A DNA stretch of 63,524 bases, filler included, from Atractiella rhizophila (Eukaryota): the NCBI GenBank assembly GCA_021432655.1. It is 3 parts of 3 records of this genome, joined end to end, with 100 filler letters (N's around TTAATTAATTAA, not from the genome) between each part and the next. Parts side by side here need not be neighbours in the genome. Positions count along the whole stretch, not along the records: positions 30,521 to 60,876 come from MU271709.1; 2 more parts are not named here. The stretch is one strand, 5' to 3'. This document shows, piece by piece, positions 3,453 to 63,524 of the stretch; the stretch's first letter is position 1; each line of letters starts with the position of its first letter. The notes under the pieces are model-generated. The model did no database searches. It was not told where the DNA came from and was given only the letters and a program-made list of their open reading frames with translations. The translations under genes were made by a program, and so were the position numbers.

Positions 3453-3682
3453 TACTACTTCTTCCTAAATATCGTCATCACAAGAAAGGAAAGAAAATGT
3501 ACCTCCCAACAATGCTGTTATGAATATGTTGTACAGTGGAATTGCATTACTGAGCTTCAAATGAGCAATCAGAACCTGCCACATAAAAGGATGGATATTT
3601 GATATTTGATTTCAGTTGTTCATTTTGATTATGTTTACATTCCCAGTTACATTGTCACAGCGAACAAGGAGGATGGGAGGAA

Positions 3683-4377: not shown

Positions 4378-4618
4378 TTGGCTCTTCTTTTCTTTTCTTT
4401 CGATGCAATGGTATGGTACTGAGACTTGCGGATCGCTGGATCGCTTAAAAAGCCTCGAAAGCGGGTACTGTACGATAGCGTGCGTGGGGATGTCTGTACT
4501 CTGGAATTCCACGGCGCCCAGCTACCTTCCAGAAGGAGAAGCAAAAATTTCAAGCGCGTCTCCAACCAACAACACGTCAACCTCAATAACCATTCCTCAG
4601 CCTTTCTCTTCAGTAGCC

Positions 4619-4919
4619 ATGGTGCGTCCCTTGCTCACTGGCCTCATGCAGCAAAGTAATGCTAACGCTGCGACAGTCGAACCTCACCATCAAGTCCATC
4701 AAGTCCCTCATTCCCCTCATGGACCGAGTGCTCGTCAAGCGCATCGAGCCGCTCTCCGTAAGCCTCTCTCTTCCTCTCCTTCACTCTCTGCACCACACCC
4801 TACTGACTGTCTCGTCTCGTCGTCCGGTCGGGCAGAAAACGGCCTCGGGACTCTTCATCCCCACCTCGTCCACCTCCACCCCTCCCGAAGCTGAGGTCCT
4901 CGCCGTCGGAGAGGGATAC

Positions 4920-4920
<1 letters not shown>
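4619..4920 (+). CDS. HSP10: Hsp10 co-chaperonin, 3'-truncated at the poly-A junction
   Basis: ATG|intron|SNLTIKSIKSLIPLMDRVLVKR..|KTASGLFIP..AEVLAVGEGY, then the A-run. Confidence 0.85.
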
Positions 4921-30420: not shown

Positions 30421-30520
30421 NNNNNNNNNNNNNNNNNNNNNNNNNNNNNNNNNNNNNNNNNNNNTTAATTAATTAANNNNNNNNNNNNNNNNNNNNNNNN
30501 NNNNNNNNNNNNNNNNNNNN
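30421..30520. other. Artificial scaffold spacer (44 N, TTAATTAATTAA, 44 N)
   Basis: Six-frame stop linker between N runs. The same spacer occurs at 60877-60976. Confidence 0.97.
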
Positions 30521-37955: not shown

Positions 37956-39204
37956 GTGAGCAGGTCTTCGGCCCATTCGCGCGCTTTTTCAATCATCGCG
38001 TTGTCGGGGCCACTGTTGCGTTTCTCAGAATGGAGGAGGGTGAGAAGTTGGGGATGCAAACGTACGTGATGCTGATGTGCATGGGTTCGTCGCTCTCTCT
38101 CCCTGTATCTGTCTCCAAGAATCCCGATCCTTGACCTTTGATCTGGACCCTGGTCTGAGTTTCTCCTTGAATGAATTTGACGAATATTCCCTGCACCGTT
38201 CTCGTCAATAAGAGGGATTGGCTCAAGAGAAGGAGCTGCAGACGTACGCCGGGTCCAACGACCTTAGCCCTGACGTTAAAATTCCTCAAATTGTCCAACC
38301 CCACAGGCATCTTTTCCTCATGCCACTTCCTCTAATATCCACAATCCTCTCTCAGCATGCGCCGAAAGAGAAGAGGAGAGGAGGAGACGCACCCTACCCC
38401 TCTCATCCTTCCTCTCCGTCAACGGTCCCATCTCCGTGTTGATCAGCTCCTCCACCTTCGCCACTCCCATCTGAAGGACCTCGAGGGTGGTCGCGGTGAT
38501 GTGGAGATACAAAGGAGGCGCTCCCTCCGTCGCTAAGCTCTTGTCTGGGTACCAATTGCCCTTGGTGGTCACGGTCGCGCCGGTGTCTTTGTGGATCTAG
38601 AGTGCAGAGAACAAATAAGAGAGGGTGACTGGTGGGTGGGATGTGAGCTAACCTAGAGAAAGAGGGAGCGGCGTGAGTACATTGAAAAGAAAGAGGTTTG
38701 TCATAACGGAAGATTGCCGTGGAGGCAGTTGACACTACTTCTCGATGGCGTCTGCTCAGCGACAAGCCGTCAGCTCGTCCTCTCACTTGATGACGATACA
38801 AATAAGAAAATTCTCCTCTACCCTCTCCCTCCTCGTGGTGAAGTAGTGACAGCAAAACATACCTGACTCTGCGTCGTTCCCTTGGTCAACATGTACCTAT
38901 TCCGAACATCGTTGATCTCCACATCCTTCACAAACTCAGGATCCCCCGGTTCTCTCGCATCAGCAATATACTGTCCACCAACCGCCGACGGCGCAGGTTT
39001 CGTAGAGTACTGAGCCGCGATGCGTCTAGCAGCCTCCGCTATCACCAATTCGCATCAGCATGTCATCTCCATCAAATACAAATACGGGAGGGAAGTTTGG
39101 GAGAGAAACACACCAGCTGCGTCCAAAGCGTTGGACTCGAGTTTTGGCTGCTTCGAAGGCGGAGAAGCGCTCGGATCGTCCCATTTCCTTTTGCGGTCTG
39201 ACAT
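37956..39204 (-). CDS. KHDC4-like copy B (alternative version, 3'-truncated at EDLLT)
   Basis: Matches 36706-37955 with mostly synonymous and intronic differences. ATG at 39204. Confidence 0.8.
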
Positions 39205-39385
39205 TTTCTCTTGCTCCTCTTGCTGTCCTGTCCTACTCCAAGACTCAAATGTACCTTCGCAAGGACGTGGTCGTTGCTGACACTCAGATTAGGGAATGCG
39301 GGTGGCAATTTTCACTCAAACCTCAAAACAGTGGAGAGTGTAAAGATCAAGTATTGGATGATACATAAGAGCGCTACAGAACAAC

Positions 39386-40526
39386 ATGCAGTCCCTCTCC
39401 GAGCGCTCATACCATCTCTCCTCACTCGCCCTCCTTCGCTCTGACGGTCGCACCTCGAACGAGTTCCGCAAGCGCTTCATCTCTGTATGCTCTTTACTTC
39501 ATCATATATTTCTGATCAATGTGGGGTGGATAGCACGACGTATCGCCATTGGCTAATGGAAGCGCGCGCGTCGAGATCGGAGGGACAGTGGTCGTAGCTG
39601 GTGTAAAGGTCGAAATCGAACCAGGATCCACCGCACGGGTAGGAATCGACGTCGAAGTGTGAGGATCATCCATTCCTCCATTCCCAGACTCAAGGCACTG
39701 ATGAAGAGAAGGCGTCTTCGTCAATAACACAGAGCGGCAGCAGCAGCCGTATCCTCCACCCTCTCCGACCCATCATTCGCCGTCCAATCCTTCCTACTCT
39801 CCATCTACACACCCCAATCGCTCAACCTCCCCACTCTCACCCGCACAAGGAGACTCGCGCTCTCTGTCCACGTCATCATCCTCTCCACAGATGGAGGGAG
39901 CGTCCTAGACGCCTGTGCGTTGGCGTGTCGGGAGGCGTTGGGGAAGACGCGCATCCCGAGGTTCAACGTGGGGGTGTACAAAGGACATGACAATCCTTCT
40001 GCTGCCGCTACCGTTGAGACTGGAGATATGGATGGAGGAGGAAGAGGAGGAGGAGGGGAGGACGTGTGGAAGACGGAGGCGGAGGGTGAGATAGAGCTGT
40101 TGTCGCAGTCGGTGGAGGATGGCACCCTGTTATCTCCCGAGCAGTGGCCCTCTGTCGTCACATTGCACCTTGTGCGTCTCTCTCTTATCTCCTTCATGTT
40201 TCGGGCTCACTGATTCTTTCTGTTTCGGCGGGGAAGGCCGGAGAGAATTTATTCGTGGATGCGACAGCAGAAGAAGAGCTGGCCGCGTCCAACCGTCTCT
40301 CCATCGCTATTGCTTCATCCGAAAGCAACGCAAACGGAGACGATGGAGATGGGGAGGAGATATGTGGGTTGCAGTGGGAAGGAGAAGGAGAAGTGGGATT
40401 CGACCGCCTCAAGGAGATCCTCATCGTTCGTCCTCCCCTTTACATACTCTTCGGCGAGTGTTGAATGTGCGTTTGGCGCAGAGCGGTGGAAAGGTGGTGC
40501 GGCAGTTGAGAGGGGGTCATGCTTGA
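39386..40526 (+). CDS. RRP42: Exosome RNase PH-like subunit, Rrp42/EXOSC7-like (copy 1)
   Basis: LRSDGRTSNEFR..|SPLANGSARVEIGGTVVVAGVKVE, ILSTDGGSVLDACALACREALGKTRIP, FVDATAEEE. Confidence 0.8.
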
Positions 40527-40709
40527 GATTTACTCATTCCCTTCTCCTCCTTTGTAGGACTGTGACCTTCTCTGTCTTTGTTCATGATTGTCAATGAATA
40601 CAATGACCCTTTATTGGCCACTCATAAAGGCAGACCTGAGAAACCTATTGTTGACCGATTCGCATTCACCAACTTGGATGAGGATGATCGAAACAACGAG
40701 ACGACCAAG

Positions 40710-41366
40710 ATGACACTCGCCTCACTCCCTCCACACATCCACCACCGGATATTCACCCACCTCCTTTCGCCCTCAGCGGCACCGAAAGCAGAGCACGACC
40801 AAGTACGGGAAAGCGGGTGCACGCTTGGCAGTCTGCTCACGGGGTTCGGGTCGCGGGTGCTGCACGAGAGCGCGCTGGGGTTCGCATATGGCACGCTGAC
40901 TGTGAGGGACTCAGGCGGGGCAGGGGACGAGGACGAGGTGGAGGAGGCGAGCCAGCTGGGCACCGTCCTGCGGTCGTCCACGCATGCCCGGTTCGTCGAG
41001 ACCGTCCTCTTCGTCCAGGGCGACGAGATCGAGCCTGCCCGTCTCGAGGAGATCATCTCGTCCCTGCCATCCCTCAAACACCTCGAATGGCGCTCGCCCT
41101 TCCCGCCCCCGCCGAACCTCTGCGCGTTGCTCACCCACCTCCCGCTGCACACTTTCATCCTCTCACTCCCGTCGTCGGACGAGCGCTGGGACGCAGAGAT
41201 GTTCTCGCTCCTCCCTTCGTCCCTCCGAAGACTGTCTATATCCTCACTCTCCCAAGATGGCTCAAAGTCCTTAGCATCCGCAGGACACATCTCCTTTCCG
41301 TTCCTCGAACATCTCGCGCTCGACAACTCCCTCTTCGTCGACGACGCCCTCCTCTCCTCCGTCGGT
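40710..41366 (+). CDS. F-box/LRR (RNI-like) protein, 5' part; its remainder is written backwards in 41367-44714
   Basis: MTLASLPPHIHHRIF, then LRR-like repeats. Near-identical to 46568-47224. Confidence 0.7.
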
Positions 41367-44300
41367 AACCTCAAGGGGAGCGAAGGCACAGGTTAAAGAA
41401 CGGGGTCCAGCACGGTCCAATCCTATATCGTGGCAGTTTTGATTAAACATGTGGCAGCGGGGATTACACATGCAGAGAGTGAGAACGGAACCTAGGCCTG
41501 ATCCTCTAACTGTTGACTGAAACTAACGCTTACGAGTCTCACCCTCGGACGACAGACCAGTAGAAGAGAGTTAGCAGGCTGTCTAAGGCTCTCGCGAGAT
41601 AGGTAGAGTAGCAAGGAGAGCGAGACTGGGACTAGCCGAAGTAGCAAGAACCCTGCTAGCTGCAACTCCGAGTGTAGTTGCACAGGATGAAACGGACAAA
41701 GGAGGAGACGTACCCTAGGAAGAGAGGGAGACACGAGGAGACGAGAACCCGTCGTTTGTTGTGGGGCCTGGGTTGGTTCTCCCGGCACGAGCAGCGGTAG
41801 TGGCAGCCAAAGCCTTTGCGTCGGCCTAACCAAAGAAGATTGCAGAAGGTTCGGTTTCTGCTTGGCTTTATGTAGGGACGGGAGCAGACAAGTCGACAGA
41901 AACCGCGCCGACGCTAATGCCCTCATCGCGAGAAACCTTCAATATACTCCTAGCTATTAACCGCAGCGCTATCCGTTGTCCCACACTCCAACTGCTCGTT
42001 CCTACAACTGTGACGGTTTAACTTCCTACCGTAGTCTCTAGGGTTGACCTCCAGTCAGAAGAGGCAGAAGAATGAGAGTTCTATTCTCGACTGCACGAAC
42101 ACTACACTATCCACCTACATGATCTAACACCTGAGCCTAAACAATAAACAGAACAGCAACCTCCTACTACTTCCTAAAGCTAACTCCTACCTAACTAGCT
42201 ACGGAAAGAACCAAATGCGAAATGGAACGCGAATGCTAACGTTTTGTAGAACATATTGCTTCGTTTGACGAGTGCGTTCGCAGGGTTGTGGTACCCTTCT
42301 TCACGGGTACTCTCTAAGTTTACCTTCTTCATGTGGGCGGTGTTTTAACCCAAGTGGGAGTTGGTCTGAGCCTGAATCTTGAGCGGTCTTGAGCGCGAAG
42401 TCGGGAACGAAAGGCTTTCGTTAGTTTGCTTAAGCTTTGGCCTACGTAACTTCCTGTGGAGGTGGCTAAGGTCAGCCTCCAAGGAAGCTAGGAAACTGAC
42501 TGGACTGGACAGTTCGGACGACAACTCAGACGACAGCGAGTCGTATGAACGGTCACAACTTCCACCGGCTCGTCACCTCCGGCGTCACGCACCTCCTCTT
42601 CCTCAGGCACGGTACTAGAACCCCAACTTGCAACTTGTTGTAACTTATAGCAATTTTACTCTGACATTAACCCGCGAGACCTTTAGTCTTCTTGTCCACC
42701 CCACAGACGACATGTAAAGGACAACAAACTTGAGCTTGTTGAACTTTCCGTTCTCGTGCCCCTGTCCTTTTTGATCCATCACTTGTGTGGTAGTTCAAGA
42801 AGTTCAAGAAGCTATGGTCGTCAGTGCCACCAATAGGACCACCCGCACGGACATAGTACTACAGTCTCACCAGGACGAATTCCCTGGACACCCGTTACAT
42901 GTTAAAGGACGCAACCGTCGAACCTCTGATGATAATAAAAGGTGATATCTTCATTTACTGATAAGAAACGTAAGAAAACGTGCGTCCCGATAATTTAATG
43001 TAAAAGAGAAGAGAAGAGAGTTGCGCCTGATTCTGTAAGTTGAATGAATGTTAGTATGTACGTTTACGTGTCGTTACGAGCATTTGTAAAAGTAGTTTGC
43101 GTGAAGTCTTGGAAGTAGACAGGGAGGCAGGTCTAAGAGGTGTTCGCACTCACCTGGCAGGGTGTTTGCTTTGCTGTGTTAGCCTTCCCCTCAGAGTTAA
43201 GGAAGGGGAGACGACTGGCTACTGCTCCTGGGAGAGGAAAGGTAAGCGCGACGAGAAGGCAGAGCGTACCGAGGAAGGGCAGAATAGTAGGAAGGTTGAG
43301 GGCAAGGGCAGGTGTAAAGGTAAAGGTAAAGGAGGAGGTTGCTGTAGCTGTAGCTGTAGCTCTCCCCTCTCCCTCTACCCAAGCTGCCACTGCAGGAAGA
43401 GGAGGTCGACGCCGTCCTGCGACTTGAGGAAGAGCCCCGACGACCACGGACGAAGAGGCCTCTATCTGTACCTGTACCACCAGCGCATGCTCGAGTACGA
43501 GTCTGAGGATAAGAAGGAGGTGGGTGAAGGTATGGGTTAGCTTCTTTGGCTGCTGGAGGAGGAGGGCGGGTGTGGACGTGGGTAAGGTTTGGCTCGAGGG
43601 TGAGCATAGGCGGTAGGGGCGCTGTATCTAGCTTGAGCGGAGTGACGGGGAGGCAGCAGGAAGGTAGGAAAGGGAGTGGAGGAGGGAGAGCTCTCCGTGC
43701 TTCCGCTGGAAGTTGTTCGAAGGGAAGCCGCCTACCGAGTCAAGGGTGGAGGGTTGAGGAGGTGCAGGGCAGGTGTGCTAGAGAACGTCGAACCCTCTGA
43801 AAAAGTTGCGAAAGGCCTTTAGAAAGCGAACGCCTTGCCGCCGACACTCGCGCAGCCTCTCCCGCCAACCCGGCCTCCTCCTGCCCCCCTCCTCCCACTC
43901 CTTCCCACACACCGCACCTCCCTACCTCTCTCACTTTGCTGCCTCCACCGCCTCCAACCGCATCCAGCTTCTCCCTTACAAATCGACAAGTAGCAGAGCA
44001 ATTAACGTAGAGAACATAGTGTTTAATATCGTGACAGCTTACTTTCTTCCTTTTTACCTACCTTCTCTGCATGGTGGAAACACTTCCCCCGTAGCTGATT
44101 TTGGGAGTTAGGGAGGTTATTCCATGTAAAGAGGTAATATCGGACATCTTGGAGCTCCCTCTAAAGGGTTTTCAGTTAGAGCTCGCAGAACTCAAAGGGT
44201 GGGACAAGGTTGTTGTTGTCGTGCAGCAGGAACCGGTAGGCAGAGCCGCGTTGGGACAGCAGCGTTCCCTCGTTCCGCACCAACGGCCCGACATCCCTCT

Positions 44301-44714
44301 CGCGTCCTTGAACTGCCCACTACCTATCCACCCTCTCCCACGTCCTCCCCTTCCTCTCATTCCTCTTCTCCCTCCTCTCCACCAGGCAGCAGGTAGAAGC
44401 TGTAGTGTGGTTGCTCTTACTAGAGTGAGGACGAGCTGTTGTTGTTTCTCTCTTCCTCTCTGTATGCTCACAGATACGAGCTGGTGGAGGGGCTTAGGCT
44501 AGGAGTTTGAGCAGTTTCGAGAGCCGGTTAGGCAGTTTGAGCAGGTGTTGGGAGACGAGTCGGAAGGGAGCTAGAATAGGTCGAGGTTGAGAGGGGGTAA
44601 GGGCTTTGAGGTAGGAGGAGGAGGGAGGTTATAGGGAGAGTGGGGAGCCAGCCAGTTGAACCAGGGGGTCCAAGGCTCAGACTGGAAGAAGTCGGACGGC
44701 GGCCTGCAGGTGGC
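41367..44714. repeat. Reversed, non-complemented (mirror) copy of 47225-50631
   Basis: Read right-to-left from 44714 the sequence is cggtggacgtccggcggcaggctgaagaagg..., equal to 47225 onward. It ends ...gcgaggggaactccaa, equal to 50631. Confidence 0.97.
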
Positions 44715-44739
44715 NNNNNNNNNNNNNNNNNNNNNNNNN
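44715..44739. other. 25-N assembly gap
   Basis: N run directly after the mirror block. Confidence 0.97.
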
Positions 44740-45019
44740 TTCACAAACTCAGGATCCCCGGGCTCTCTCGCATCAGCAATATACTGTCCACCAACGGCGG
44801 AGGGTGCCGGTTTCGTAGAGTACTGAGCCGCGATGCGTCTAGCAGCCTCCGCTATCACCAACATCGTGTCAGCATCTCATCTCCATCAAACACAAATACG
44901 GGAGTGAAATTTGGGAGTGAAAACACACCAGCTGCGTCCAAAGCGTTGGACTCGAGTTTTGGCTGTTTCGAAGGCGGAGAAGCGCTCGGATCGTCCCATT
45001 TCCTTTTGCGGTCTGACAT
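44740..45019 (-). CDS. KHDC4-like 5' fragment (copy C, same version as copy A)
   Basis: Appears identical to about 37679-37955 and supplies the missing ATG at 45019. Confidence 0.8.
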
Positions 45020-45220
45020 TTTCTCTTGCTCCTCTTGCTGTCCTGCTGCTTCGCTGTCCTACTCCAAGACTCAAATGTACCTTCGCAAGGACGTGGTCGT
45101 TGCTGACACTCAGGTTAGGGAATGCGGGTGGCAATTTTCACCACCTCACCTCAACCTACAAAACAGTGGAGAGTGTAAAGATCAAGTATTGGATGATACA
45201 TAAGAGCGCTACAAAATAGC

Positions 45221-46393
45221 ATGCAGTCCCTCTCTGAGCGCTCATACCATCTCTCCTCACTCGCCCTTCTTCGCTCTGACGGTCGCACCTCGAACGAGTT
45301 CCGCAAGCGCTTCATCTCCGTATGCTCTTTGCTTCATTAGATAGTTGAGAACGGTTTGATCAATGTGGGATGGATAGCACGACGTATCGCCATTGGCTAA
45401 TGGAAGCGCGCGCGTCGAGATCGGAGGGACAGTGGTCGTAGCTGGTGCGAAGGTCGAAATCGAACCAGGATCGACTGCACGGGTAGGAATCGACGTCGAA
45501 GTGTGAGGACCATCCATCCATCCATTCCCAGACTCAGGACACTGACGAAGAGAAGGCGTCTTCGTCATTAACACAGAGCAGCAGCAGCAGCCGTATCCTC
45601 CACCCTCTCCGACCCATCATTCGCCATCCAGTCCTTCCTACTCTCCATCTACACACCCCAGTCGCTCAGCCTCCCCACTCTCACCCGCACAAGGAGACTC
45701 GCGCTCTCTGTCCACGTCATCATCCTCTCCACAGATGGAGGGAGCGTCCTCGACGCCTGTGCGTTGGCCTGTTGGGAGGCGTTGGGGAAGACGCGGATCC
45801 CTAGATTCAACGTGGGAGTGTACAAGGGACATGACAGTACTTCTGCCGCTGCTACTGTTGAGACTGGAGATATGGAGGGAAGAGGAGGAGGAGGAGGGGA
45901 GGATGTGTGGAAGACGGAGGCGGAGGGTGAGATAGAGCTGTTGTCGCAGTCGGTGGAGGATGGCACCCTGTTATCTCCCGAGCAGTGGCCCACTGTGGTC
46001 ACTTTGCACCTTGTGCGTCTCCCCTTCCTCTCTTATATCCTTCATGTTTCGGGTTCACTGATTCTTTCTGTTTCGGCGGGGAAGGCGGGAAAGAATTTAT
46101 TCGTGGATGCGACAGCAGAAGAAGAGCTGGCCGCGTCCAACCGTCTCTCCATCGCTATCGCTAATCCATCCAAAAGCAACGCAAACGCAGATGATGAAGA
46201 TGGGGATGACGATGATGGGGAGGAGATATGTGGGTTGCAATGGGAAGGAGAAGGAGAAGTGGGATTCGACCGCCTCAAGGAGATCCTCATCGTTCGTCCT
46301 CCTCTTTACATACTCTTGCGGCGAGTGTTGAGTGTGCGTTTGGTGCAGAGCGGTGGAAAGGTCGTGCGGCAGTTGAGAGGGGGTCATGCTTGA
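45221..46393 (+). CDS. RRP42: Rrp42/EXOSC7-like exosome subunit (copy 2)
   Basis: Same exon structure as 39386-40526. Confidence 0.8.
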
Positions 46394-46567
46394 GATTTAC
46401 TCATTCCCTTCTCTTCCTTTGTAGGACTCTGACCTTCTCTGTCTTTGTTCATGAATGTCAATGAATACAATGATCCTTTATTGGCCACTCATAAAGGCAT
46501 GCCTATTGTTGACCGATTCGCATTCGCCAACTTGGATGAGGTTGATCGAAACAACGAGACGACCAAG

Positions 46568-48746
46568 ATGACACTCGCGTCGCTCCCTCCACACATCCAC
46601 CACCGGATATTCACCCACCTCCTTTCGCCCTCAGCGGCACCGAAAGCAGAGCACGACCAAGGACGGGAAAGCGGGTGCACGCTTGGCAGTCTGCTCACGG
46701 GGTTCGGGTCGCGGGTGCTGCACGAGAGCGCGCTGGGGTTCGCATATGGCACGCTGACTGTGAGGGACTCAGGCGGGGCAGGGGACGAGGACGAGGTGGA
46801 GGAGGCGAGCCAGCTGGGCACCGTTCTGCGGTCGTCCACGCATGCCCGGTTCGTCGAGACCGTCCTCTTCGTCCAGGGCGACGAGATCGAGCCTGCCCGT
46901 CTCGAGGAGATCATCTCGTCCCTGCCATCCCTCAAACACCTCGAGTGGCGCTCGCCCTTCCCGCCCCCGCCGAACCTCTGCGCGTTGCTCACCCACCTCC
47001 CGCTGCACACTTTCATCCTCTCACTCCCGTCGTCGGACGAGCGCTGGGACGCAGAGATGTTCTCGCTCCTCCCTTCGTCCCTCCGAAAACTGTCTATATC
47101 CTCACTCTCCCAAGATGGCTCAAAGTCCTTAGCATCCGCAGGACACATCTCCTTTCCGTTCCTCGAACATCTCGCGCTCGACAACTCCCTCTTCGTCGAC
47201 GACGCCCTCCTCTCCTCCGTCGGTCGGTGGACGTCCGGCGGCAGGCTGAAGAAGGTCAGACTCGGAACCTGGGGGACCAAGTTGACCGACCGAGGGGTGA
47301 GAGGGATATTGGAGGGAGGAGGAGGATGGAGTTTCGGGAATGGGGAGAGTTGGAGCTGGATAAGATTGAGGGAAGGCTGAGCAGAGGGTTGTGGACTAGC
47401 TTGACGGATTGGCCGAGAGCTTTGACGAGTTTGAGGATCGGATTCGGGGAGGTCGTCGAACATAGACACTCGTATGTCTCTCCTTCTCTCTTTGTTGTTG
47501 TCGAGCAGAAGTGAGATCATTCTCGTTGGTGCAATGTCGAAGATGGACGACGGACCACCTCTCCTCCCTCTTCTCCTTACTCTCCTTCCCATCTTGCACC
47601 CTCTCCCACCTATCCATCACCCGTCAAGTTCCTCCGCTCTCCCTACAGCCCGGCAACCACGCCTTGCTCCCTTGCGACGACAGGGTTGCGCCGAGACGGA
47701 TGGCCAAGGACGACGTGCTGTTGTTGTTGGAACAGGGTGGGAAACTCAAGACGCTCGAGATTGACTTTTGGGAAATCTCCCTCGAGGTTCTACAGGCTAT
47801 AATGGAGAAATGTACCTTGTTGGAAGGGTTGAGGGTTTTGGTCGACGCCCCCTTCACAAAGGTGGTACGTCTCTTCTATCTATTTTTCCTTCTTTCATTC
47901 GACAGTGCTATAATTTGTGATACAAGAGATGCAATTAACGAGACGATGAACAGCTAAACATTCCCTCTTCGACCTACGCCAACCTCCGCCACCTCCGTCG
48001 TTTCACTCTCTCCATCCCTCCACGCCACACACCCTTCCTCACCCTCCTCCCCGTCCTCCTCCGGCCCAACCGCCCTCTCCGACGCGCTCACAGCCGCCGT
48101 TCCGCAAGCGAAAGATTTCCGGAAAGCGTTGAAAAAGTCTCCCAAGCTGCAAGAGATCGTGTGGACGGGACGTGGAGGAGTTGGGAGGTGGGAACTGAGC
48201 CATCCGCCGAAGGGAAGCTTGTTGAAGGTCGCCTTCGTGCCTCTCGAGAGGGAGGAGGTGAGGGAAAGGATGGAAGGACGACGGAGGGGCAGTGAGGCGA
48301 GTTCGATCTATGTCGCGGGGATGGCGGATACGAGTGGGAGCTCGGTTGGAATGGGTGCAGGTGTGGGCGGGAGGAGGAGGTCGTCGGTTTCTTCGATCGG
48401 GTATGGAAGTGGGTGGAGGAAGAATAGGAGTCTGAGCATGAGCTCGTACGCGACAACCATGTCCATGTCCATCTCCGGAGAAGCAGGCACCAGCAGCCCC
48501 GAGAAGGAGTTCAGCGTCCTGCCGCAGCTGGAGGAGAAGGACGTCACCGTTGAACCCATCTCCCTCTCCCCCTCGATGTCGATGTCGATGTCGATGTCGT
48601 TGGAGGAGGGAAATGGAAACGGAAATGTGGACGGGAATGGGAGTTGGAAGGAGGATAAGACGGGAAGGAGCCATGCGAGACGGAAGAGCAGCGCGAACGG
48701 AAAGGAGAGGGTCCTCGTCATCGGTCAGCAAAGGGGAAGGAATTGA
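46568..48746 (+). CDS. F-box/LRR (RNI-like) protein with Ser-rich tail; apparent 1-nt frameshift near 47342
   Basis: F-box-like start, then LRRs (LEHLALDNSLFVDDALL, LKTLEIDFWEIS, LQEIVWTGRGGVGRW). G4 here versus G5 in the mirror copy. Confidence 0.72.
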
Positions 48747-49869
48747 GACTCCCCTTCCGATTGTGTCGTTTCGTTTGTGGGACGGTCCACTCACGCTTGT
48801 GGAGAATCTGGACGGAGGGACAGATGAAGGTTCTGAAGTGAGTTTGATGAAAATGTTTACGAGCATTGCTGTGCATTTGCATGTATGATTGTAAGTAAGT
48901 TGAATGTCTTAGTCCGCGTTGAGAGAAGAGAAGAGAAAATGTAATTTAATAGCCCTGCGTGCAAAAGAATGCAAAGAATAGTCATTTACTTCTATACTCT
49001 CTCTTGAATCTTGAACCAAGTTCGTTGGAAGATACTAGCTAGTAGCTTTCGAACCGCCAGCGCACATTTCCAACAGGGCTCTCGCTCTCAGGCAAGGCAG
49101 GACCACTCTGACATACAGACACGCCCACCAGGATAACCACCGTGGCTGCTGGTGTTGAAGAACTTGAAGAACTTGAAGGTGTGTTCACTGCCTAGTTTTC
49201 CTTTCAAGCTACCTGTCCTGTCCCCATGCTCTTGCCTTTCAAGTTGTTCGAGTTCAAACTACAGGAAATGTACAGCAGACACCCCACCTGTTCTTCTGAT
49301 TTCCAGAGCGCCCAATTACAGTCTCATTTTAACGATATTCAATGTTGTTCAACGTTCAACCCCAAGATCATCGCACGGACTCCTTCTCCTCCACGCACTG
49401 CGGCCTCCACTGCTCGGCCATCTTCAACACTCGCACAAGCAAGTATGGTCACAGCAACAGCAGACTCAACAGCAGGCTTGACAGGTCAGGTCAGTCAAAG
49501 GATCGAAGGAAGCTCCGACTGGAATCGGTGGAGGTGTCCTTCAATGCAATGCATCAGGTTTCGAATTCGTTTGATTTCTTTCGAAAAGCAAGGGTTCATG
49601 CGCTGATGAGCGAGTTCCGGCGAGTTCTAAGTCCGAGTCTGGTTGTGATGAACCCCAATTTTGTGACGGGTGTACTTCTTCCATTTGAATCTCTCATGGG
49701 CTGGTGTTGGGACGCTCGCGTGAGCAGTTTGGTTCGTTATACAAGATGTTTTGCAATCGTAAGCGCACGGTAAAGCGTAAACCAAGAAAGGCATCGATCA
49801 ATCCATCCTCAATCGAAATCCTTCATCATCCTCCAACGACAAGACAAATAACAAATCCGAGTCCACAAT

Positions 49870-51920
49870 CTAGTACATCCACCTATCACGCCACAGACAC
49901 ATCAGCTGCTATCCTAAGAGTGAGAAGAGGGAGAAGACTGACCTCCAGTTGGGATCTCTGATGCCATCCTTCAACTTGGCAGTGTCAACATCCTTGCTCG
50001 TCAACCTCACACCCTGTTGCCTATCGCGACGCCAATTATCGATCCTCATATAACTTCCAAAGAGCGCTACTCCCGTAATCGCAGCCGCGCCAAAGACAGC
50101 TGAACAGACGAGGGCAGGGATGTATTTCGGTTCGTCTTTGGCTTGGAAGACGTTAGAAGAAACCAACCCGGCTGCGTTTCCGAAACCGACAGTGATGGCG
50201 ACGAGCACGGCCCTCTTGGTTGGGTCCGGGGTGTTGTTTGCTGCCCAAGAGCAGAGGAGCACAGAGGGAGAGAAGGAACCCATGCAGAGGAGGAAACAGG
50301 CAAAGTAGGATACGTTGATGTGAGCCTCGACGTCGATCGTCCCAAGAACGATGAAGCCGATCAGGGTCAGAGCGAGAGGAACGATGAGATGGATAGAGCG
50401 CTCTCGGAATCGGTCGGACGATTGAGAGAAGATAACCAGACAGCAGGCTCCCACTCTGTCCATTCGCAAATCAAAGTCAGGTTGTCAATCTCCTTGTCCG
50501 GATTCCAAGGCAAGAGTGAGAAACATACACGTTAGGAGCGACGGTGTACAAATTAGTTTTGACAGTGCTATATCCTAACCTGGCCACGACCTGGGGCAAG
50601 AAATTGGACACGGAAGCGAGGGGAACTCCAAGACAGAACTCGATACCGAACCAAAAGATGGTCTGCCATTCGGTGAGGATCTGTCTGAACGCCTGTTTGA
50701 CGGTCGTGTTCGACGTGATCTCTGTCGTTCCGTCCCTCAACAGTCTCGCTTCGCAAATCGCTTTCTCCTCCTCAGACAAAAAGCGGGCGTGCGAGGGCGA
50801 GCGGGGGAGGATCAAGGCCATGAGGATGGCGACAAAGATCGTGAATCCGCCTTCCCTGAATACAGACATCACATCAGTGTTCCATTCAAGCTTTGGATTG
50901 GAGAGGAAAGGTCGTACGTAAGGAAGAGGATCTGCCATCCCTGTAGAGCAGCGTGTTTCGCCTGGAATACTCCGTAGGCAATCAATCCCTGTGTAGCGAT
51001 TTCAGTTCAGCGTTAGAAGATAAAAGGGAGAAAACATACACCGAAAGCTCCAGCAATAGAAGCAGCGGCATAGAAGATTCCCACCCTCCTGGCGAGTTCA
51101 GCTCGGGTCTATTCATTCACATCCGCCTCAGAACCAAAAAGTGACATAAAGGGAGAAGGGAGACAAACGTAGAAGGTTGAAAGGTAAAAGATGGTACCGG
51201 GCAATACGGCAGCTTCAGCGACTGCGAGTAAGAGACGGATGGTGAGAATGCCTCCAAAGTTCTTGACAGCGGCCGAGCACATCTACACATGATCCATCCA
51301 TACATCCGCCGTCAATTTCGAGTCCTGGGGATGCAGGTGGGGAAAGAGAAAACATACGGAGAGAGCTCCGAATGAGAGTGCCATGATGGGCAGCACGCGC
51401 GCAGCGGTGAACTTCTTGATCAGGATCGTGATTGGGGTTCCCATCACGCAGAAGGGCGCCTGTCCGTCCCCTTCACGTCAGCAGATGTTCTTTGAAGGAG
51501 ATAGAGATGGGAGAACGAACGTAGAAAGCGGTGATGAGTTGATAATACTGGTTTCCGACTAATCCAATGGCCTTATCGAATCCGTCCGTTTTAGCATTCC
51601 CAAGGTTAGCTGTTGTCCCCCACATCGAGTGAGCGATCTATACGAATGAAATTGAATGTAGGAAAGGACTGACTCTTGTCGAGTGCATTGCAGAGGTACA
51701 TGGTAGCCAAGAGGGCGAGGAGCCAAAGGTCGAACTTGCGCAGGATCTTGCTCTCGACTTTAGGGTCAACGGGAGGGATGTCGTGCATGTCCATAGCCCC
51801 TTTGACCTCTGCAGAGACGGGGAGGTCTTCGTACGCCTCCTTGCGGTCTCCATCGCTGAAACCATCCGAGGAAGGCGACTTGTTGTCCAAGTCTGAAGCT
51901 GACGATAACGAACGAGCCAT
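49870..51920 (-). CDS. MFS transporter, ACS (Dal5/Tna1-like) family, complete multi-exon gene
   Basis: Hydrophobic exons including SNFLPQVVARLGYS..NLYTVAP, SDRFRERS, WAANNT..KRA, GNAAGLVSSNVF..PKY; ends DPNWRWMY*. Confidence 0.92.
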
Positions 51921-52367
51921 CCTTGCTTCGAGTTAAGTTGTTGGCCTTTGTTGCTGAGGTCTTCCTGGTGGATATACCCTGAAATATACCTCTCGAACTC
52001 GTGACGAATTCTTGACGAATTCTTGACCAGACTTCGACGAAACTTGATGCAAGTTCGCTGGGGAAAGTGGCCAGCGCAGGATAAGACTTATAAAGAGGGG
52101 AAAAAGGTGGAGGGATGCTCGGACGACTGTGAGGCATGTTATCATTCAACTGCGACAATCAACGCGTGGTCGTTTGTGCCCGTGCAGATATACTTCCCGC
52201 CTTGTCTGCTATTTTAGTACGTGGGTGTTCACTTGATCACTGCTCCATTTCTTCATTGCTTTTCATCTTGTACCAATCTATCCACTTAAATATCTATTTC
52301 TACCCTGTTCCTGTTCCTGCTGACACAAAGAAGTACCTCACCGTGACAATCAGAACCAGAAACCAAA

Positions 52368-54085
52368 ATGGCTTCCCAAACGAGCACCCCCGCTGAACTC
52401 CTCCCGCTTCCCACCAAAGATGTACTCCTCCAGGCTTTCAAGTCCAAGTCGCTCTCCTCGCTTCGGACTCCAGCCATAGTCATAGAACGCAAGCCCTATG
52501 CGGATAACTGTCAGGCCATGGCTGAAAGGGTCAAAGCAGTCGGAGCCAGGTTTCGGTTCGTCTATCTTTCTCCGTCCTTATATAACGGATCCTAAGGATG
52601 ATGTTATACAGAGCTCACGTGAAGTCGCACAAAGTACTTTTCATCGTTTGTCCTCATGGAAAGCAAGAGCTGATGCGAGCGATAGACAGCGGAGGGCACT
52701 CTGCTTCAGCTGCAAACCTCTCCTGCATCTCACTCCGTCGTCTGTTCGACCCTACCCGAAGCTTGGGGATTGGTTCATGCCGGATTGGCGAAATCAGGCG
52801 TCGTGCATGATGTGCGTGCTCATTTCTCTTTCCGAAAAATCCTATATTCTGCGAAAATCCCTTCTCGTTGGACTATTCTCCCAATTTCACTGATCCTATA
52901 CCCAAAAACTGTTTTCAATAAATACACTCCAATGATTGTCTGCGGAGAAATATCCTCAAATAAATCTCCAAAGAAAATCAAGCTTACCCTGTGATAGATG
53001 CTCTACGGTTTCCCACTGCCGCTCGACAAGATCGCAGACCTCGCTTCTCTCCAGGAGCATTACAAGGAAGTGCTGGTCATGATCGACGACATTCGCCAAG
53101 TCAACGGGTTAGCAGCATACAATGATCGGGAGGGAAAGAAGGTGGCTTTCAAGGCGTTTGTCAAAGTGAACCAAGGCAATCTGTGCGTCCCTCCTTTCCC
53201 CGTTCCCATCATCCACCTCAATAAATCACTGACGAGGAAACGACAGACGGGCAGGATTGGAGCTCGACTCGCCCGAACTGGCCGCGCTCATCAAATCCAT
53301 CATCTCCTCCCCGTACCTGTCCATCTACGGCTTCTACACGCACTCCGGGGACGCCTACGCCTCTCGAGATCCCCAAAAGGCCCAAGAATTCCTAACGACC
53401 GAAATCCGATCCGTCGCCTCCGCCTCCTCCTTCGCTCGGAAGATCTACAAAGAACAACAAAAGGAGGAGGAGCTGACAAGCTTCGTCCTCTCCGTCGGTT
53501 CCACGCCTACAGCGCACGTGTCCTCCTCCCTCTCGCAGTTCAAGGACCTCCTACACTCGACTGACGAGTTGGAGGTCCATGCGGGCGTTTACCCTCTGTG
53601 CGATTTGCAGCAACAGAGTACCTCCCTCGTCCCTGCTGAGAACCTCGCGATGGGAGTGTTGTCGAGAGTTTGCGCCATTTACGAACATCGGAAGCCTCCG
53701 CAGGCTCTGATAGATGCCGGAGCGATCGCTTTCAGTAAGGATCAAGGACCGACGGGTGACTTTGGGAGGGTGTATTTCTCGAAGCAGGGTTTGGAAGGAT
53801 GGAGGGTGCACAAGACTTCTCAGGTTCGTCGACCTTCCCCCTTCATTAGAACCACGCTGAGATTGTGGATGTATTCGTTAGGAACATGGTTTGCTTTCCC
53901 CTCCGGAGGGGATGTCGGACGAGGAGGCGAAGGAGCTGTTGAAGACGGTGAGCTTGGGAGAAATCGTCAAGATCCGCCCGCAACATGCTTGCCTCACTTG
54001 TGCCGCTCATCATTGGTATTATGTGACGGAGACGAAGGAGGAAGAGACGGTGAGCGATGTTTGGGTGCCATGGAAAGCTTGGTAA
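52368..54085 (+). CDS. DSD1: D-serine dehydratase-like (copy 3, complete)
   Basis: Same motifs and exons as 1725-3452. Confidence 0.88.
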
Positions 54086-54307
54086 TAATACTCCTTCCTA
54101 AATATCATCATCACAAGAAATAAAAGAAAATGTACCTCCCAACCATGCTGTTATGAATATGTTGTACAGTGGAATTGCAATATCGAACTTCAAATGAGCA
54201 GTCAGAACGTGCCATGTAAAAGGATGGATATTTGATTTCAGTTGTTCATTTTGATTATCTTTACATTCCCGGTTACATTGTCACAGCGAACAAGGGGATG
54301 GGAGGAA

Positions 54308-55002
54308 TCACGGCTTGACCATCGCCACGCCCTCGATCTCGACGAGAACATCGAGCGGGAGTCTCGCGACCTACACCTCCGATCAGCGACCAACGCTGAG
54401 CACGTTCAGAGACGCACCTCGACGCAAGTCCTCGTCGGCTTGTAGGGTGCGAAAAAGTCGCCGTAGACTTTGTTGATGCGTCCAAAGTCGTTCATGTCCT
54501 TCAAGTAGACTGAAAGACCCCCATTGTCATCAGAATAGAGGATTTGGGACGGCATGGTAGGAGGAGGGACGCACTGTTGCATTTGATGATGTGGTCCTTA
54601 TCCGATCCGCTGGCGTTCGCTACCGCAGACAGGTTCTTGAGCACCTGGAGCTGTATCCGACCAATCCATAGAATGATCAGCAACCTCCAACCAAAACATT
54701 GAAGATTGAAAATTGGGAATTGGGAATCGAATGCGACGAGGGAGACGAACGCATTGAGCCTCCACACCTCCCTCGACCACCTTTCCCTGCAGATCCACGC
54801 CGATGCATCCAGAGATGTACACGAGCGTCGCGTTCGCGGGCACCTTCAATGCAGACACTGTTCACCGACATCGAGGAATCGATCAGCCATCTTCTTCCAA
54901 CCTGGGAATATTAATAGGGAGGGAACACGAACCGAGAGGGACATTCGGGTTGGAGAACGCCTCGCTGGCGGGCACGGTGACGACTTCGAGAGGTGAAGGC
55001 AT
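54308..55002 (-). CDS. RidA family deaminase (copy 3)
   Basis: Same exons as 3683-4377. Confidence 0.9.
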
Positions 55003-55243
55003 TTGGCTCTTCTTTTCTTTTCTTTCGATGCAAAGGTATGGTACTGAGAACTGCGGATCGCTGGATCGCTTAAAAAGCCTCGAAAGCGGGTACTGTACGA
55101 TAGCGTGCGTGGGGATGTCTGTACTCTGGAATTCCACGGCGCCCAGCTACCTTCCAGAAGGAGAAGCAAAAATTTCAAGCGCGTCTCCAACCAACAACAC
55201 GTCAACCTCAACAACCATTCCTCAGCCTTTCTCTTCAGCAGCC

Positions 55244-55772
55244 ATGGTGCGTCCCTTGCTCACTGGCCTCATGCAGCAAAGTAATGCTAACGCTGCGACA
55301 GTCGAACCTCACCATCAAGTCCATCAAGTCCCTCATTCCCCTCATGGACCGAGTGCTCGTCAAGCGCATCGAGCCGCTCTCCGTAAGCCTCTCTCTTCCT
55401 CTCCTTCACTCTCTGCACCACACCCTACTGACTGTCTCGTCTCGTCGTCCGGTCGGGCAGAAAACGGCCTCGGGACTCTTCATCCCCACCTCGTCCACCT
55501 CCACCCCTCCCGAAGCTGAGGTCCTCGCCGTCGGAGAGGGATACAGGGACAAAGAGGGAAAGATCACGCCGACGACCGTCAAGGCGGGAGACAAGGTCCT
55601 CCTCCCCTCGTTCGGAGGACAGAGCTTCAAGCTCGGAGAGCAGGTTCGTCTTTCTTCCTTCCTTCACAGGTGATAGGGTGTTCATGGTATTCATGTGCGT
55701 TGGGTTGGGTTGGGGTGGCAGGAGTATCAAATCTTCAGAGACTCGGAAATAATCGCCAAAATCAACGAGTGA
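55244..55772 (+). CDS. HSP10: Hsp10 (complete)
   Basis: Same as 7603-8126. Confidence 0.95.
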
Positions 55773-56487
55773 TCCATTCACCCAAAACCGTCAGCCTCCT
55801 CTCCCTTTTATTGTTGAAGGACTAGAGAGGAGGAGAAGGAGACCATCGCATCCAGTCGTACTTGCATTCACATAACATACCTCGTTCACATACGCCTGTC
55901 CTAATACCTATATGCTTATGCTTTTGGGAATCTAAGCTGCATTCTCCACTCTCATCCCTGCCCTCACTTTGGCGACACGTCAGTGCACTACCACCCTAAA
56001 TTCTATTACTGAGAACAGGCTGGTCGTTTTTGTACTCTTACTCAACAAGTACATTATTTAACGCTGAAGTCGTCTTTCTTACTTCCGAGAAGACTCACTC
56101 GAAGTGACGAAGGGCAGATGGTATACACCAAGGAGCAAACAACGCATGAACCGAGCCACTTCTCGAACGAGAAGCACAAGAGTACTCTCAAGCGATCAAC
56201 AATCGAAATTGCACTCAGTCGATCCAAATGCCAAAACGCGAAAAGGGGTGTGAACGAAGGCTATCCAGGCCGGACGAAAGAAAAGGCAGACAAAGATGGA
56301 AAGCGTGCCGACCTGGGCTTGATTGATAGACGTTGCGGGGAGAGGGGGGAGTGGGTATCCTAAGTGCTTCACAAGATCGGGGACGGATTGGTGGTTGAAT
56401 ACTGTGAAAGAGATGGAATGAATTTATTGAAACCAGAATCAACAACGGGAGAGGATTTACAGGATGAAGATTATATTGGGGAGACGT

Positions 56488-57898
56488 TTAGTCTTGCTTC
56501 TCGATGACCCACATCTGGGACTCATCAGACTGTTTTCATCCATTATCGATCAGGACCATTCGCAGAAGAGCAAGGCAATAACGAACCCTGTCAAAGTCAA
56601 CCATCTTGACAGCTTGGGCATCAGCAAAAGCGGTGATGGCCTCGCCGGCAAGAGCACGGGTGGTCATGTCCCTTCATTCACCGTCAACATCTATCCCTCT
56701 CATCGAGAAACAAAGAAAGAGCGTACTCAATGTGGTCCATGGCAACGAAGTAGAAAACTCCGGAGTCAGGAGAGGCCCTCTTCTTCAAAGAGCTGGCGAT
56801 GGACTTGTGCGACCTCCTCATCATGCCGGCCTTGTTGAGGACCTTCTTGCACTCTGGGTGGTCCTTCACGTATTCGCTGTGCTGGGCGAGCCAGGTGGCG
56901 TCCTTGGTGCAGACGGGGGCGACGGCGAGTCCCTTGCACTCGGGGTGCTTGACGTACCAGTCGGAATCCGCATCCTTAGCGTTGCGGTAGAGCCAATCTC
57001 CAGCCTGTTCCAACCCAACGGGATCAAAACCATGTTCCAAACGCTGCGGACGACAAAGGCAGAAGGACAAAGAGGGCAGACCTTGGTGCAACCAGATCCG
57101 TCGGTGCTATCGCTGTCGTCGCTTGAGTCGGTCTTCTCAGAGTCGTCAGTCTTGACAGCAACCTTAGCGACGGCCTTGGTCTTCTCGGAGGCGGAGGAGG
57201 AACCATCATCGAGGTAGGAATCGTCGACGGGGATGGCGGCCCAGAACTGCTTGTAGGGCTCCAAGCTGTCCGTGTGGCACTCGGGCTCGTCACCGTATGC
57301 GCACTCGTAGGCAACTCCGTATTCGTCACGGCCGATATCCTCCTCCCATTGGGCGGAAATCACCTGTTCGGCGAAAAGAACGCATCAGCACTCCCATTTT
57401 CCACATTTCTAAGAGAAAGAACGCAGCTCACCTTGTTGTCGGGGACATACCTGATCCTCGTCGATCCGTCACCCCTAAAGGAGGGCTTGAGCTCGAGGGT
57501 GTCGCCGGCTCCAAGTCCGGATCCATCTCCGAGAGACTTGAGGATCTCAGCGATGGTATCGAGGCTAGGGAGGAAGTTGGCCTGGTCGTTATGGACGTAT
57601 GTGATGGTAGCGCCAGTCTTCTTGTTCGTAATCTTGTAGTTTCCATCAAGGGGAACTGCCTCATCCTACACCCAACAACGCGAAAATCAACAATCCCATT
57701 CTCTCGACCGACCAAGTCGATTTCTGTCCATTTTTTTGCAGAATTTTTGGTAGAATTTTCGATGCAAGGAAGACAGCCCGTAAGAGGGAAAGAAAGACAT
57801 ACAACGAGGCTCTTGGCGACTCTGGCGTTGTCAACGACGCCTTGCGCATGGACAGCGACGCCGAGGACGGCGAGGGCAGAGATGATCTTTGCGTGCAT
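56488..57898 (-). CDS. Secreted HPECK-repeat protein (copy 2)
   Basis: Same as 8852-10263. Confidence 0.75.
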
Positions 57899-59520
57899 GT
57901 TAGGAGTAACGATTGTTTGTGGTGAAGGAATGTGTGTGCTCGTAGGCAGTGAGCTGTGTGAAAATGGCCGTTTGGTGGGAAAGTGGTTGGAAAGGGATGT
58001 GCTTTTATGGCGACGAAGAAGGTTTCAGACTTAAGAAGCTTATTTCGTCTTATGCGCACGCTAAAACGCGAAAACGCGCAGAACCTCCCAAACGCCAAGC
58101 CACGACTTCGGCCCCCTTTTCCCTCAACTCTTCTTACAGTCAGAGATACTTCTCTTCTTGGATTTGTGTTTATGTTTATGCAAGATGCCTCCAGACCTTT
58201 GCTCAAGTGTTGTTGAATCTTTGGACAGCCAGAGAGCCAGAGAACCGATGTTTTGGTCGCGTTTCAGATCAACGAAACGTGGAGATCACCGCTGCTTCCA
58301 CCTTTCTGGCCAGTTCTGGATACAATCTCCAGGTGCTTCCACCACCCCACAATGCTGCTATCAGCAGAGTGAGCATCAGGCTCAGGAACTGGAGTCCGTG
58401 GAATGGATGAGCAAGCAGACCATTCCACAAGGTGTGTCGGTTCTCGCTTTTCAGAACGAATGACCTGCAGTCTCGCAGCCGGTATGGCAACCAGCTGTTA
58501 TTGCAGTAATGCGCCGAAATCTGCGCACCGTGAACGTTGCATGCATGATTCTCGGAAGCAGCATCAATTGCCAGCGGAGGTGTCGGTGCTTTCAATAAAA
58601 TCGACACAAAGAACTTCGCTGCTTCACGACCAACCTCTCACTTGTTTGTGATGGACCCCTCGTTTCAAGACGGACATGAGTGAAAGCACTCTTGTTTCGG
58701 TCGTGATGAAGTGCCGAAACGTCGTTACGTGCCGCATTCGCGAAGCAAGATTACATCTACTTGGTAGACGCGAACAATAAATAAGAAAGAAGAGGTTGCA
58801 TTTTCAATGATGTCACCCCACCGTATTATTGAGAAGTTCAGGCGAAGAATTTATCTCAAGTCTGCCTGGCACTTTGTTTCATGAGCGAAGAACGAGTGTC
58901 TCGCATTTCTTTCCATTCATCGACGGAAAGGACAAAGGCAATGTTTAAACCGCGATATTGATGAAACTCGGTAGAGAGTGCACTAACCATGGGGTTGTCG
59001 ACTCCCTTCACGTGACCACAATATCCCTCTTTTCCTTCAAAAAGATCCAAGAATTCAAAGTCCACATCCAAATTTTTCGTTTTGAGGCGAAAGAGGTGCC
59101 GTAGGTAGAGGCTGGAGGGAATATATACCTCCTCATCTAGCAAGGTTCAAGAGAGACCCGAGTTCGCTAACTCCTTGCGCCAATCCAGTTCACTGTGGTG
59201 TAGCAGAATTTGCACGAGGAAGCACGCTCGGTGCTCCAGAATTGGACCTTGAAGGGATACTTTTCAGGGCAGACGCCTCGGACCTCTATGTCAGGAGCCA
59301 AGGTTGCAAGGAGTAACACACTGAAATATGTCCTGTTGTCCACTAAACCACATGCAATTCCATCACAGACCTGGGTATCCCTTACATTTTGAGCACGGAT
59401 AGCAATCCTCAAGCGATAAAACATTTTGCAAAGAACCAAAATTCACCCAAAATTCGAAATCACCACATTTACTCACTTTTTGAGCATTTTCGATTTTTTT
59501 TTATCCGTTCCATGATTCAG

Positions 59521-60876
59521 TTAGTCTTCGTCCAACAGAGGAGCAGCGGCAGCGGCAGCCCTCAACCTGTCCTCTCGGTCAAGACGCTTCCACTCGTCCT
59601 GAAAATACGGTCAATTTCAATCTACTGGCCTCTTCACGAAGTACACTTACCTTCGTGGCTTCTTCAATTCTTTTGCAAACCACTTGCCAACCTTTCAAGT
59701 AGTCCACTGATATCCAGTTGTCAGAACGAGGGAAGCAAGCGGAATGGAAAGACGGACGAGGAATATACGTGTCTCTTTTCGGTGCAAAATACTCCTCCTT
59801 GGCATCGTCATATTTGTTAAGGTATTCAGCCAAAGTAAGGAAATTCCTTTGATTTTTGAGATATGCCATGACCTTCGTATCCCGGCCAAAGAAGAGCATA
59901 GTCCAAACGTGCCTGATCGGCGGATACTTGTCCTTCTCTTCCTGCGTCGACAGAGAAGCCACAAGTGCCTTCTGCTCGTCGATTGCGCGCGTACAGATTT
60001 CTCGGAGGAGGACTTGTCGATTGGGTGAAGACGTCTGCGCTCGCCCATGGGACGGTGACTGCCACGAAGAAGGAGCCATCCAACATCTGGTCGGCAGTCA
60101 GTATGCTCACAGCGGAACGATGAAAACCCACATCCCACTCCGCTAACACGCATCCTGCAAGCTCCTTGTTTTGTCTCAGAGAGCTCTGACTTTCATCATT
60201 GCCGTTAATCAATCGCTGATGTCGGATCTGGAAAACAGTTCTGTCAGCTCTGAAAGGAGCATGATAATATCGAACGACAGACGGGTTTCAGATGAGCTTT
60301 CTTTCCTTTCCTTGGAGTGGGCACTTTCCATCGCGTCGCAACAAACCTGACAAACATGTGAGCCAAGTTGTAAAGATGACTAAAGGAAGGGATCCCACCG
60401 TCGTCGATTCGTCGACTTTTCGACGTCCAACCTGATGTACGGTTCGATCATCTGCCACCCGTCCTTTGCCATGTTCCCGACCTGCAAATGGCGTGAGACC
60501 CCAAATTTAAGAACAATGGCACACTTACCTCTTGGAAAGTGGTGGCCATAGCCACTCCTGGTTCGAGTATCTCAGGAATGGCTGGTGAACTATGAGCAAG
60601 TACCAATTATGGGACGTGGGTGAACAGACCTAATCCAGCAAGAAGGGTTGTCTTAAACACATCACCACAAAACTCGGCAAGTTGCTCTCTCTCTTCTTCT
60701 GGGATATCAGCCGTGCGCATGACAATGAATTCCTGATCGTTCGAATCGGCTTCGCATGTCACGTAAATGAATGTGTTCACATGAAAAGGAGACTGCCAAA
60801 GCTTACCTCCACGTGAATGACTGAGAATACATGTCTTCCTGCCGCTCTCAAAAAGCTCCTTACATCTCCACTTCCC
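59521..60876 (-). CDS. 3' part of the multi-Cys/Q-rich protein gene (copy 2); cut by the scaffold end, with a 1-nt insertion near 60010
   Basis: Matches 11882-13231. ggaggaggacttg here versus ggaggagacttg in copy 1. Confidence 0.65.
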
Positions 60877-60976
60877 NNNNNNNNNNNNNNNNNNNNNNNN
60901 NNNNNNNNNNNNNNNNNNNNTTAATTAATTAANNNNNNNNNNNNNNNNNNNNNNNNNNNNNNNNNNNNNNNNNNNN
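60877..60976. other. Artificial scaffold spacer (44 N, TTAATTAATTAA, 44 N)
   Basis: Same linker as 30421-30520. Confidence 0.97.
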
Positions 60977-63523: not shown

Positions 63524-63524
63524 G

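Follow-up and report, generated by a model that had tools for sequence, protein, structure and literature searches.

A block of 3348 nt (41367-44714) in the DNA of Atractiella rhizophila (assembly GCA_021432655.1) is a mirror copy of 47225-50631, written with its characters in reversed order and without complementing. Throughout, the window is the whole stretch of 63,524 nt that we analysed, which consists of joined pieces. The block is almost certainly a sequence-handling artefact, probably a misoriented end-extension or gap/link filling, and the real DNA almost certainly runs in natural order after 41366. As written, 41367-44714 is therefore not a real DNA feature, and its presence is a quality warning for the assembly.

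A single mirrored block in the window

When the plain, uncomplemented reverse of 41367-44714 was aligned to the window with BLASTN, two collinear plus-strand matches were found, both with E = 0. The first, to 47225-48996, covers 1776 columns at 97.86% identity, with 28 mismatches and 6 gap openings; the second, to 49097-50631, covers 1553 columns at 92.79% identity, with 52 mismatches and 18 gap openings. A mirror copy of 47225-50631 had been proposed in a sequence-only reading of this DNA, and the alignment of the plain reverse bears this out. As written, the block matched only itself when both strands of the window were searched by BLASTN, with neither a direct nor a reverse-complement match elsewhere. 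We also compared the entire plain-reversed window with the window (word size 11, E <= 1e-3). This mirror scan returned five rows, four of which are the 41367-44714 / 47225-50631 pair, found reciprocally, while the fifth is a homopolymer A-run at 4920-4945. The pair is thus the only complex mirror match in 63.5 kb, and this, together with E = 0, excludes chance as the origin of the mirror relation.

Global alignment of the reversed block with 47225-50631 gave 89 substitutions (58 transitions and 31 transversions) and 32 indel events, the latter mostly multi-nucleotide and located in the intergenic part. The differences are similar to the divergence of the flanks, in line with the allelic level that the sequence-only reading had assigned to them. 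Because the divergence is allelic in kind and in size (other duplicated stretches of the window are 93.6-96.6% identical), we take the block to be real sequence of the second haplotype rather than a copy of its neighbour. The features discussed below are listed in Table 1.

Table 1. Positions in the window of the mirrored block, the contigs and gaps around it, the linkers, and the frames matching protein P0001.
Feature	Position	Strand	Remarks
Mirrored block	41367..44714	.	3348 nt, characters reversed without complementing; second-haplotype copy of 47225-50631
Natural-order counterpart, contig of the other haplotype	47225..50631	+	Holds gene part, intergenic DNA, MFS-like 3' exon(s)
Natural-order contig, haplotype of the block	37956..41366	+	Last base = 47224; gene cut at 41366/41367
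25-N scaffold gap	44715..44739	.	Adjoins the block end equal to 47225
Contig of the other haplotype	44740..60876	+	From 38927 equivalent to 13231 equivalent; first 277 nt = 37679-37955
Start of first piece	1..4920	+	Position 1 = 50637; mosaic of two haplotypes
100-nt linker N44-TTAATTAATTAA-N44	30421..30520	.	Joins separate pieces
Second 100-nt six-frame-stop linker, N44-TTAATTAATTAA-N44	60877..60976	.	Joins separate pieces
P0001 residues 32-255	Frame 46433-47380	+	Spans junction equivalent
P0001 residues 302-415	Frame 47466-47957		Collinear
P0001 residues 457-488	Frame 47958-48746		Collinear

The block is flipped in place between two contig ends

The two copies agree in all of the 30 nt that lead up to 41366, which is the equivalent of 47224. 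The block that follows is flipped in place, such that 41367 is the equivalent of 50631 and 44714, which adjoins the 25-N gap, is the equivalent of 47225. The sequence-only reading had the match of 41366 to 47224 right, but it let the block begin at 41367 with the equivalent of 47225, whereas the base beside 41366 is the equivalent of 50631. Its statement that the end equivalent to 50631 abuts the 25-N gap has to be reversed for the same block, with the equivalent of 47225 next to the gap. It had also reported 1-nt deletions near the gap. Four of them are indeed present (equivalents of 50468, 50480, 50503 and 50584, all within homopolymers of 2-3 nt), but they lie at the other end, beside 41367. 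All four break the reading frame and fall within the last 170 nt toward the 50631 equivalent, physically at about 41367-41530, next to 41366. They look as they would at a thinly covered consensus tip.

Window position 1 is the equivalent of 50637, and the 5 nt in between (50632-50636) are absent, so that the far end of the block stops 5 nt short of position 1, as had been noticed from the sequence. The interval that the block covers is thus exactly the one from one contig end to the other. Its limits coincide with units of the assembly, namely the end of the contig 37956-41366, the N25 gap and a point 5 nt before piece 1 begins.

Contigs of public runs continue in natural order

Contigs, not raw reads, of the four public runs that contain part of 37956-44714 (X1-X4, where X1 and X2 are one sample) were aligned to that stretch. 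They cover 37956-41366. In three of the four runs (X1, X2 and X4), a single contig in each extends to 41366 and departs from the window sequence there, with a further 230 letters in X1 and X2 and 119 in X4. The opening 30 letters of this continuation, which are those we compared, equal window 47225-47254 and thus the plain reverse of 44714..44685. In the run contigs, then, the DNA past 41366 runs in natural order.

The X4 contig has intron-like joints (CT..AC, GT..AG), and is for that reason probably a transcript of the gene; the intron-like joints in the run contigs measure 53-266 nt. Together with a best homologue from a basidiomycete (see below), such joints point to a fungal-type eukaryote. 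Near the junction, the run contigs carry letters at 41114, 41157 and 41270-41271 that are found in neither haplotype of the window, and the runs may therefore come from other isolates; it may also be that the contigs that cross 41366 represent the other haplotype. They document the natural order for the species, not for the source molecule itself.

Within the block, no contig of X1-X4 matched 41572-44283 at >= 90% likeness, a result to which we gave no weight as evidence. The sole cover inside the block is a CT-rich stretch of 33 nt (44352-44384); the letters to either side of it do not match, and we read it as a chance match of low complexity. Of the words sampled from 37956-44714, the best two runs contain fractions of 0.34 and 0.33, and the ceiling for such a fraction would be about half if the block were absent.

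Restoring the natural order restores a gene

The stretch 47225-50631 contains the C-terminal two thirds of a hypothetical gene on the plus strand and, beyond the intergenic DNA, the end of the MFS-like gene on the minus strand. The hypothetical gene is LRR-like by eye and of basidiomycete type. Its only detected relative is P0001, a hypothetical protein of 716 aa attributed by its source to Schizophyllum fasciatum (a basidiomycete), which alone among 8000 scored candidates reached E <= 0.001. The label F-box/LRR, which the sequence-only reading had given to this gene, is unsupported, because Pfam returned 0 families, neither F-box nor LRR, in the tested frames. The MFS label of the neighbouring gene goes back to one weak Pfam match (E = 8e-4, 18.8 bits against a cut-off of 33.4).

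In the haplotype that is in natural order, the plus-strand frame 46433-47380 crosses the equivalent of the junction, and the frames downstream match P0001 in the same order (Table 1). In the haplotype of the block as written, the tblastn match of P0001 ends at residue 258, near 41459. After un-mirroring of the block, the match becomes collinear over residues 31-495 (E = 2.7e-42), and an open frame of 363 aa runs through the 41366/41367 junction. The real locus is an ordinary allele pair, with one gene for the hypothetical protein and one for an MFS-like transporter. As written, the block has 8 ORFs of >= 105 aa, none of which has a Pfam family at E <= 0.01; this is weak evidence, since the frames of the hypothetical gene in natural order have no Pfam family either.

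These results bear on whether the block could stem from a 3.35-kb inversion, real or intended, from which the complement step was lost. The true sequence would then be the reverse complement, with the block as written an artefact all the same. The order within the block, with the equivalent of 50631 first and that of 47225 last, is that of an inverted segment, and an error that reverses without complementing would be triggered most naturally when a program flips a piece. Against this, contigs of three of the four runs go on in natural order past 41366, and the breakpoints are contig ends of the assembly, which points to software and not to biology. An inversion would also cut both the hypothetical and the MFS-like gene, while the natural order gives the 363-aa frame and collinearity with P0001. 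We consider an inversion very improbable.

Allelic contigs are chained around the block

Several other stretches of the window are present twice. The flank 38927-41366 is 93.75% identical (allelic) to 44740-47224, and 1-4920 is 96.6% identical to 50637-55545. At 40607-41230, the haplotype of the block has private SNPs. Contig 1-4920 is a mosaic, with some 200-nt windows 100% identical to one haplotype and others elsewhere to the other haplotype. The stretches 36706-37955 and 37956-39201 (93.6% identical) abut directly. By comparison, 1941-4920 and 4943-7899 (94.6% identical) form an allelic overlap whose halves are separated by exactly 25 extra A, between 4920 and 4946. The A-run sits where two overlapping allelic contigs meet; in the other scaffold such a place is occupied by N25, and we infer that the A-run is an N25 gap turned into A. 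Conversion of N to A occurs in 2-bit encoders or in Velvet, and a minimum gap of 25 N is a convention of PBJelly.

The 277 nt of 37679-37955 are 100% identical to 44740-45016, and there is therefore a true overlap between the contigs that end at 37955 and start at 44740, respectively. It follows that 37956-44714 stands between them as an insertion from the other haplotype. Allelic contigs were thus chained and not merged, and abut as false tandem duplications in the window. The genome is highly heterozygous, with haplotypes that are about 4-7% divergent.

Two linkers join the pieces 1-30420, 30521-60876 and 60977-63524, and the window is thus not one continuous molecule. According to the part of bioRxiv 10.1101/2023.02.08.527609 that deals with it, the six-frame-stop core of the linkers also occurs in the conventional separator for concatenating contigs into a pseudochromosome. 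One could ask whether the reversal arose after assembly, by manual editing, in a submission script or during TTAATTAATTAA-linker concatenation, and not in an assembler or gap filler. Home-made or lossy processing is suggested by the 100-nt six-frame-stop linkers, and by the 25 A at a place where one would expect N25. The reversed unit, however, is internal, being joined to 41366 without a gap and bounded by N25, and is not a whole linker-bounded piece; its granularity fits contig extension or gap filling and not concatenation. A reversal after assembly is accordingly unlikely.

Comparison with known mirror, inverted and reversed sequences

In their treatment of long natural mirror repeats, McGinty, Lyskova and Mirkin (NAR 2025; PMC12214015) describe these as simple tandem repeats only, and state that mechanisms for mirror symmetry independent of simple tandem repeats 'do not seem to exist'. 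The claim of the sequence-only reading that no known mechanism makes kb-scale mirror copies agrees with this treatment. Natural mirror repeats and H-DNA resemble the block in that, on a single strand, one arm reads forwards as the other does backwards. As described in the same paper (PMC12214015), they are often homopurine-homopyrimidine and are lengthened by repeat expansion, whereas the arms of the block are 3.35 kb of complex genic and intergenic DNA. TRF gave 9 rows, each of <= 26 nt, in the 3348 nt of the block, which has a balanced composition and genic content and is thus no simple tandem repeat. Nor do the arms lie side by side, since 2510 nt (44715-47224), with the N gap and a contig start, separate them.

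Could the mirror copy nevertheless be real DNA, that is, a kilobase-scale mirror duplication of complex genic sequence in one haplotype? The sole support for this is the record itself, in which the allelic-level differences argue against a trivial copy of the neighbouring contig. Reversal of real second-haplotype sequence explains all of these differences equally well. The contigs of three runs exit the window at exactly 41366 into natural-order sequence, and the boundaries of the block are assembly contig ends and a 25-N gap. Furthermore, no templated polymerisation is known in which the strand is read 5'->3' and the copy is written 5'->3' in identical order, and the account of mirror repeats by McGinty et al. 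(2025; PMC12214015) finds no mirror-generating mechanism beyond tandem-repeat expansion. If the block were real it would need an unknown process that copies a strand in reversed order, and we regard this as vanishingly improbable. As for proposals of 3'-to-5' 'inverted' RNA, a search of the literature yielded only what appear to be speculative mitochondrial papers.

Inverted duplications and palindromic rearrangements likewise place a second copy nearby in the 'opposite direction'. They match on the opposite strand, whereas BLASTN of both strands gave only the self-match of the block and hence no reverse-complement match in the window. A likeness is also found among sequences reversed in silico, which are plain string reversals that keep the base composition and carry no biology; for Dfam, reversed, uncomplemented sequences reportedly serve as decoys. 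In the relevant part of their study, Loytynoja and Goldman (2017; PMC5453318) used reverse repeats as a negative control devoid of biology. Such controls are made on purpose as a null, while the block sits in a genome record as sequence.

The setting of the block is also a familiar one. False tandem duplications and chaining of haplotigs occur in assemblies of heterozygous diploid or dikaryotic genomes, and arrangements of this kind are seen three times in the window (1941-4920/4943-7899, 36706-37955/37956-39201 and 38927-41366/44740-47224), with the block lying within one such insertion. Ordinary haplotig artefacts keep normal polarity, however, and the missing complement of the block is an additional string error. 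We found no described precedent of reversed, uncomplemented blocks in assemblies in the literature, where only deliberate controls and unrelated uses turned up; the candidates PMC5938232 and PMC10224158 proved irrelevant.

A probable origin and its consequences

The block almost certainly arose in the handling of sequence. In the real genome, a genuine 3.35-kb piece of the second haplotype continues the contig 37956-41366. In a draft of a heterozygous genome with chained allelic contigs, this piece was joined to 41366 in reversed character order, without complementing; the same product would result if a piece from the opposite strand had been complemented but not reversed. The piece would have been an end-extension or a gap/link-filling sequence, misoriented by an assembly, scaffolding or gap-closing program or script. 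We infer the nature of the piece, and likewise the kind of string error, from its position: an extension or a gap/link fill is the simplest interpretation because the piece lies between two contig ends and adjoins the 25-N gap. Its gapless join to 41366 and the homopolymer deletions at its distal tip fit as well. One feature fits less readily, namely that the piece links 41366 to window position 1, yet N25 and the contig of the other haplotype come next.

The sequence-only reading had likewise suggested an error of gap-filling or orientation software and spurious ORFs, and the natural order in the run contigs, the restored frame and the setting of contig ends and N25 are all in accord with it. 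We also considered an array rotation with one reversal step missing, which would give B + reverse(A). This scheme needs a circular or tandem contig, and it was dropped because nothing shows the contig to be either.

A block of this type has practical consequences. Its ORFs are spurious, a real gene is cut short at 41366, and the 3.35 kb would pass for orphan sequence. Standard aligners miss reversed, uncomplemented blocks because they test only the forward and the reverse-complement strand. If one program was responsible, further blocks of this kind may lie beside 25-N (or 25-A) gaps elsewhere in this assembly, and possibly in others from the same pipeline. Detection is cheap, as it takes only a BLAST of the plain-reversed assembly against itself.

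False duplication and haplotype mixing

The two adjoining stretches 36706-37955 and 37956-39201, which follow one another without a gap, are allelic versions of one 1.25-kb stretch (93.6% identity), and thus constitute a false tandem duplication. Since 37679-37955 is 100% identical to 44740-45016, we conclude that 37956-44714, which includes the reversed block, is an insertion from the other haplotype; the contigs on either side of this insertion truly overlap, by 277 nt.

We also compared 1941-4920, 4946-7899 and 52584-55545 in 200-nt windows. Across these windows, 100% identity of the contig at 1-4920 alternates between the two partners, with only 29 differences private to this contig in the three-way comparison. 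The contig is a haplotype mosaic. Where it meets the overlapping allelic contig (94.6% identity between 1941-4920 and 4943-7899), we observed 26 consecutive A residues at 4920-4945, one natural and exactly 25 extra, forming the only homopolymer of at least 12 nt in the window. This run looks like a 25-N gap that some program turned into A.

The window consists of three concatenated pieces (30420, 30356 and 2548 nt) rather than a single molecule, because it contains two identical linkers, whose core TTAATTAATTAA is a six-frame stop. One piece probably starts exactly at window position 1.

Coordinates of the linkers and of the domain-bearing frame
Feature	Position	Strand	Details
Linker, 100 nt, copy 1	30421-30520		N44-TTAATTAATTAA-N44
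Linker, 100 nt, copy 2, identical to copy 1	60877-60976		N44-TTAATTAATTAA-N44
Frame with Pfam RNase_PH_C	45572-46393	+	E = 1.4e-5, exceeds gathering score

Genes around the block

The frame with the RNase_PH_C match, a predicted exosome-type 3' exoribonuclease-domain gene, lies upstream of the hypothetical gene whose copy on the other haplotype is cut at 41366/41367. In the natural-order contig (44740-60876), the latter changes frame at approximately 47314-47347, the tblastn HSPs 46694-47314 and 47347-47505 being in different frames. After plain reversal, the block maintains a single frame across residues 31-302 of P0001, a homologous 716-aa hypothetical protein attributed by its source to Schizophyllum fasciatum, and its G-run corresponding to 47342 is longer by one G. 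The frame change may be a 1-nt deletion error in the natural-order contig, or a small intron.

Just upstream of the block, contigs from the public runs X4 and X3 omit 53-266 nt at 38011-39114 and 39658-39712, with ends CT..AC or GT..AG. The omitted stretches are probably short introns of the fungal type, in genes that are expressed from both strands.
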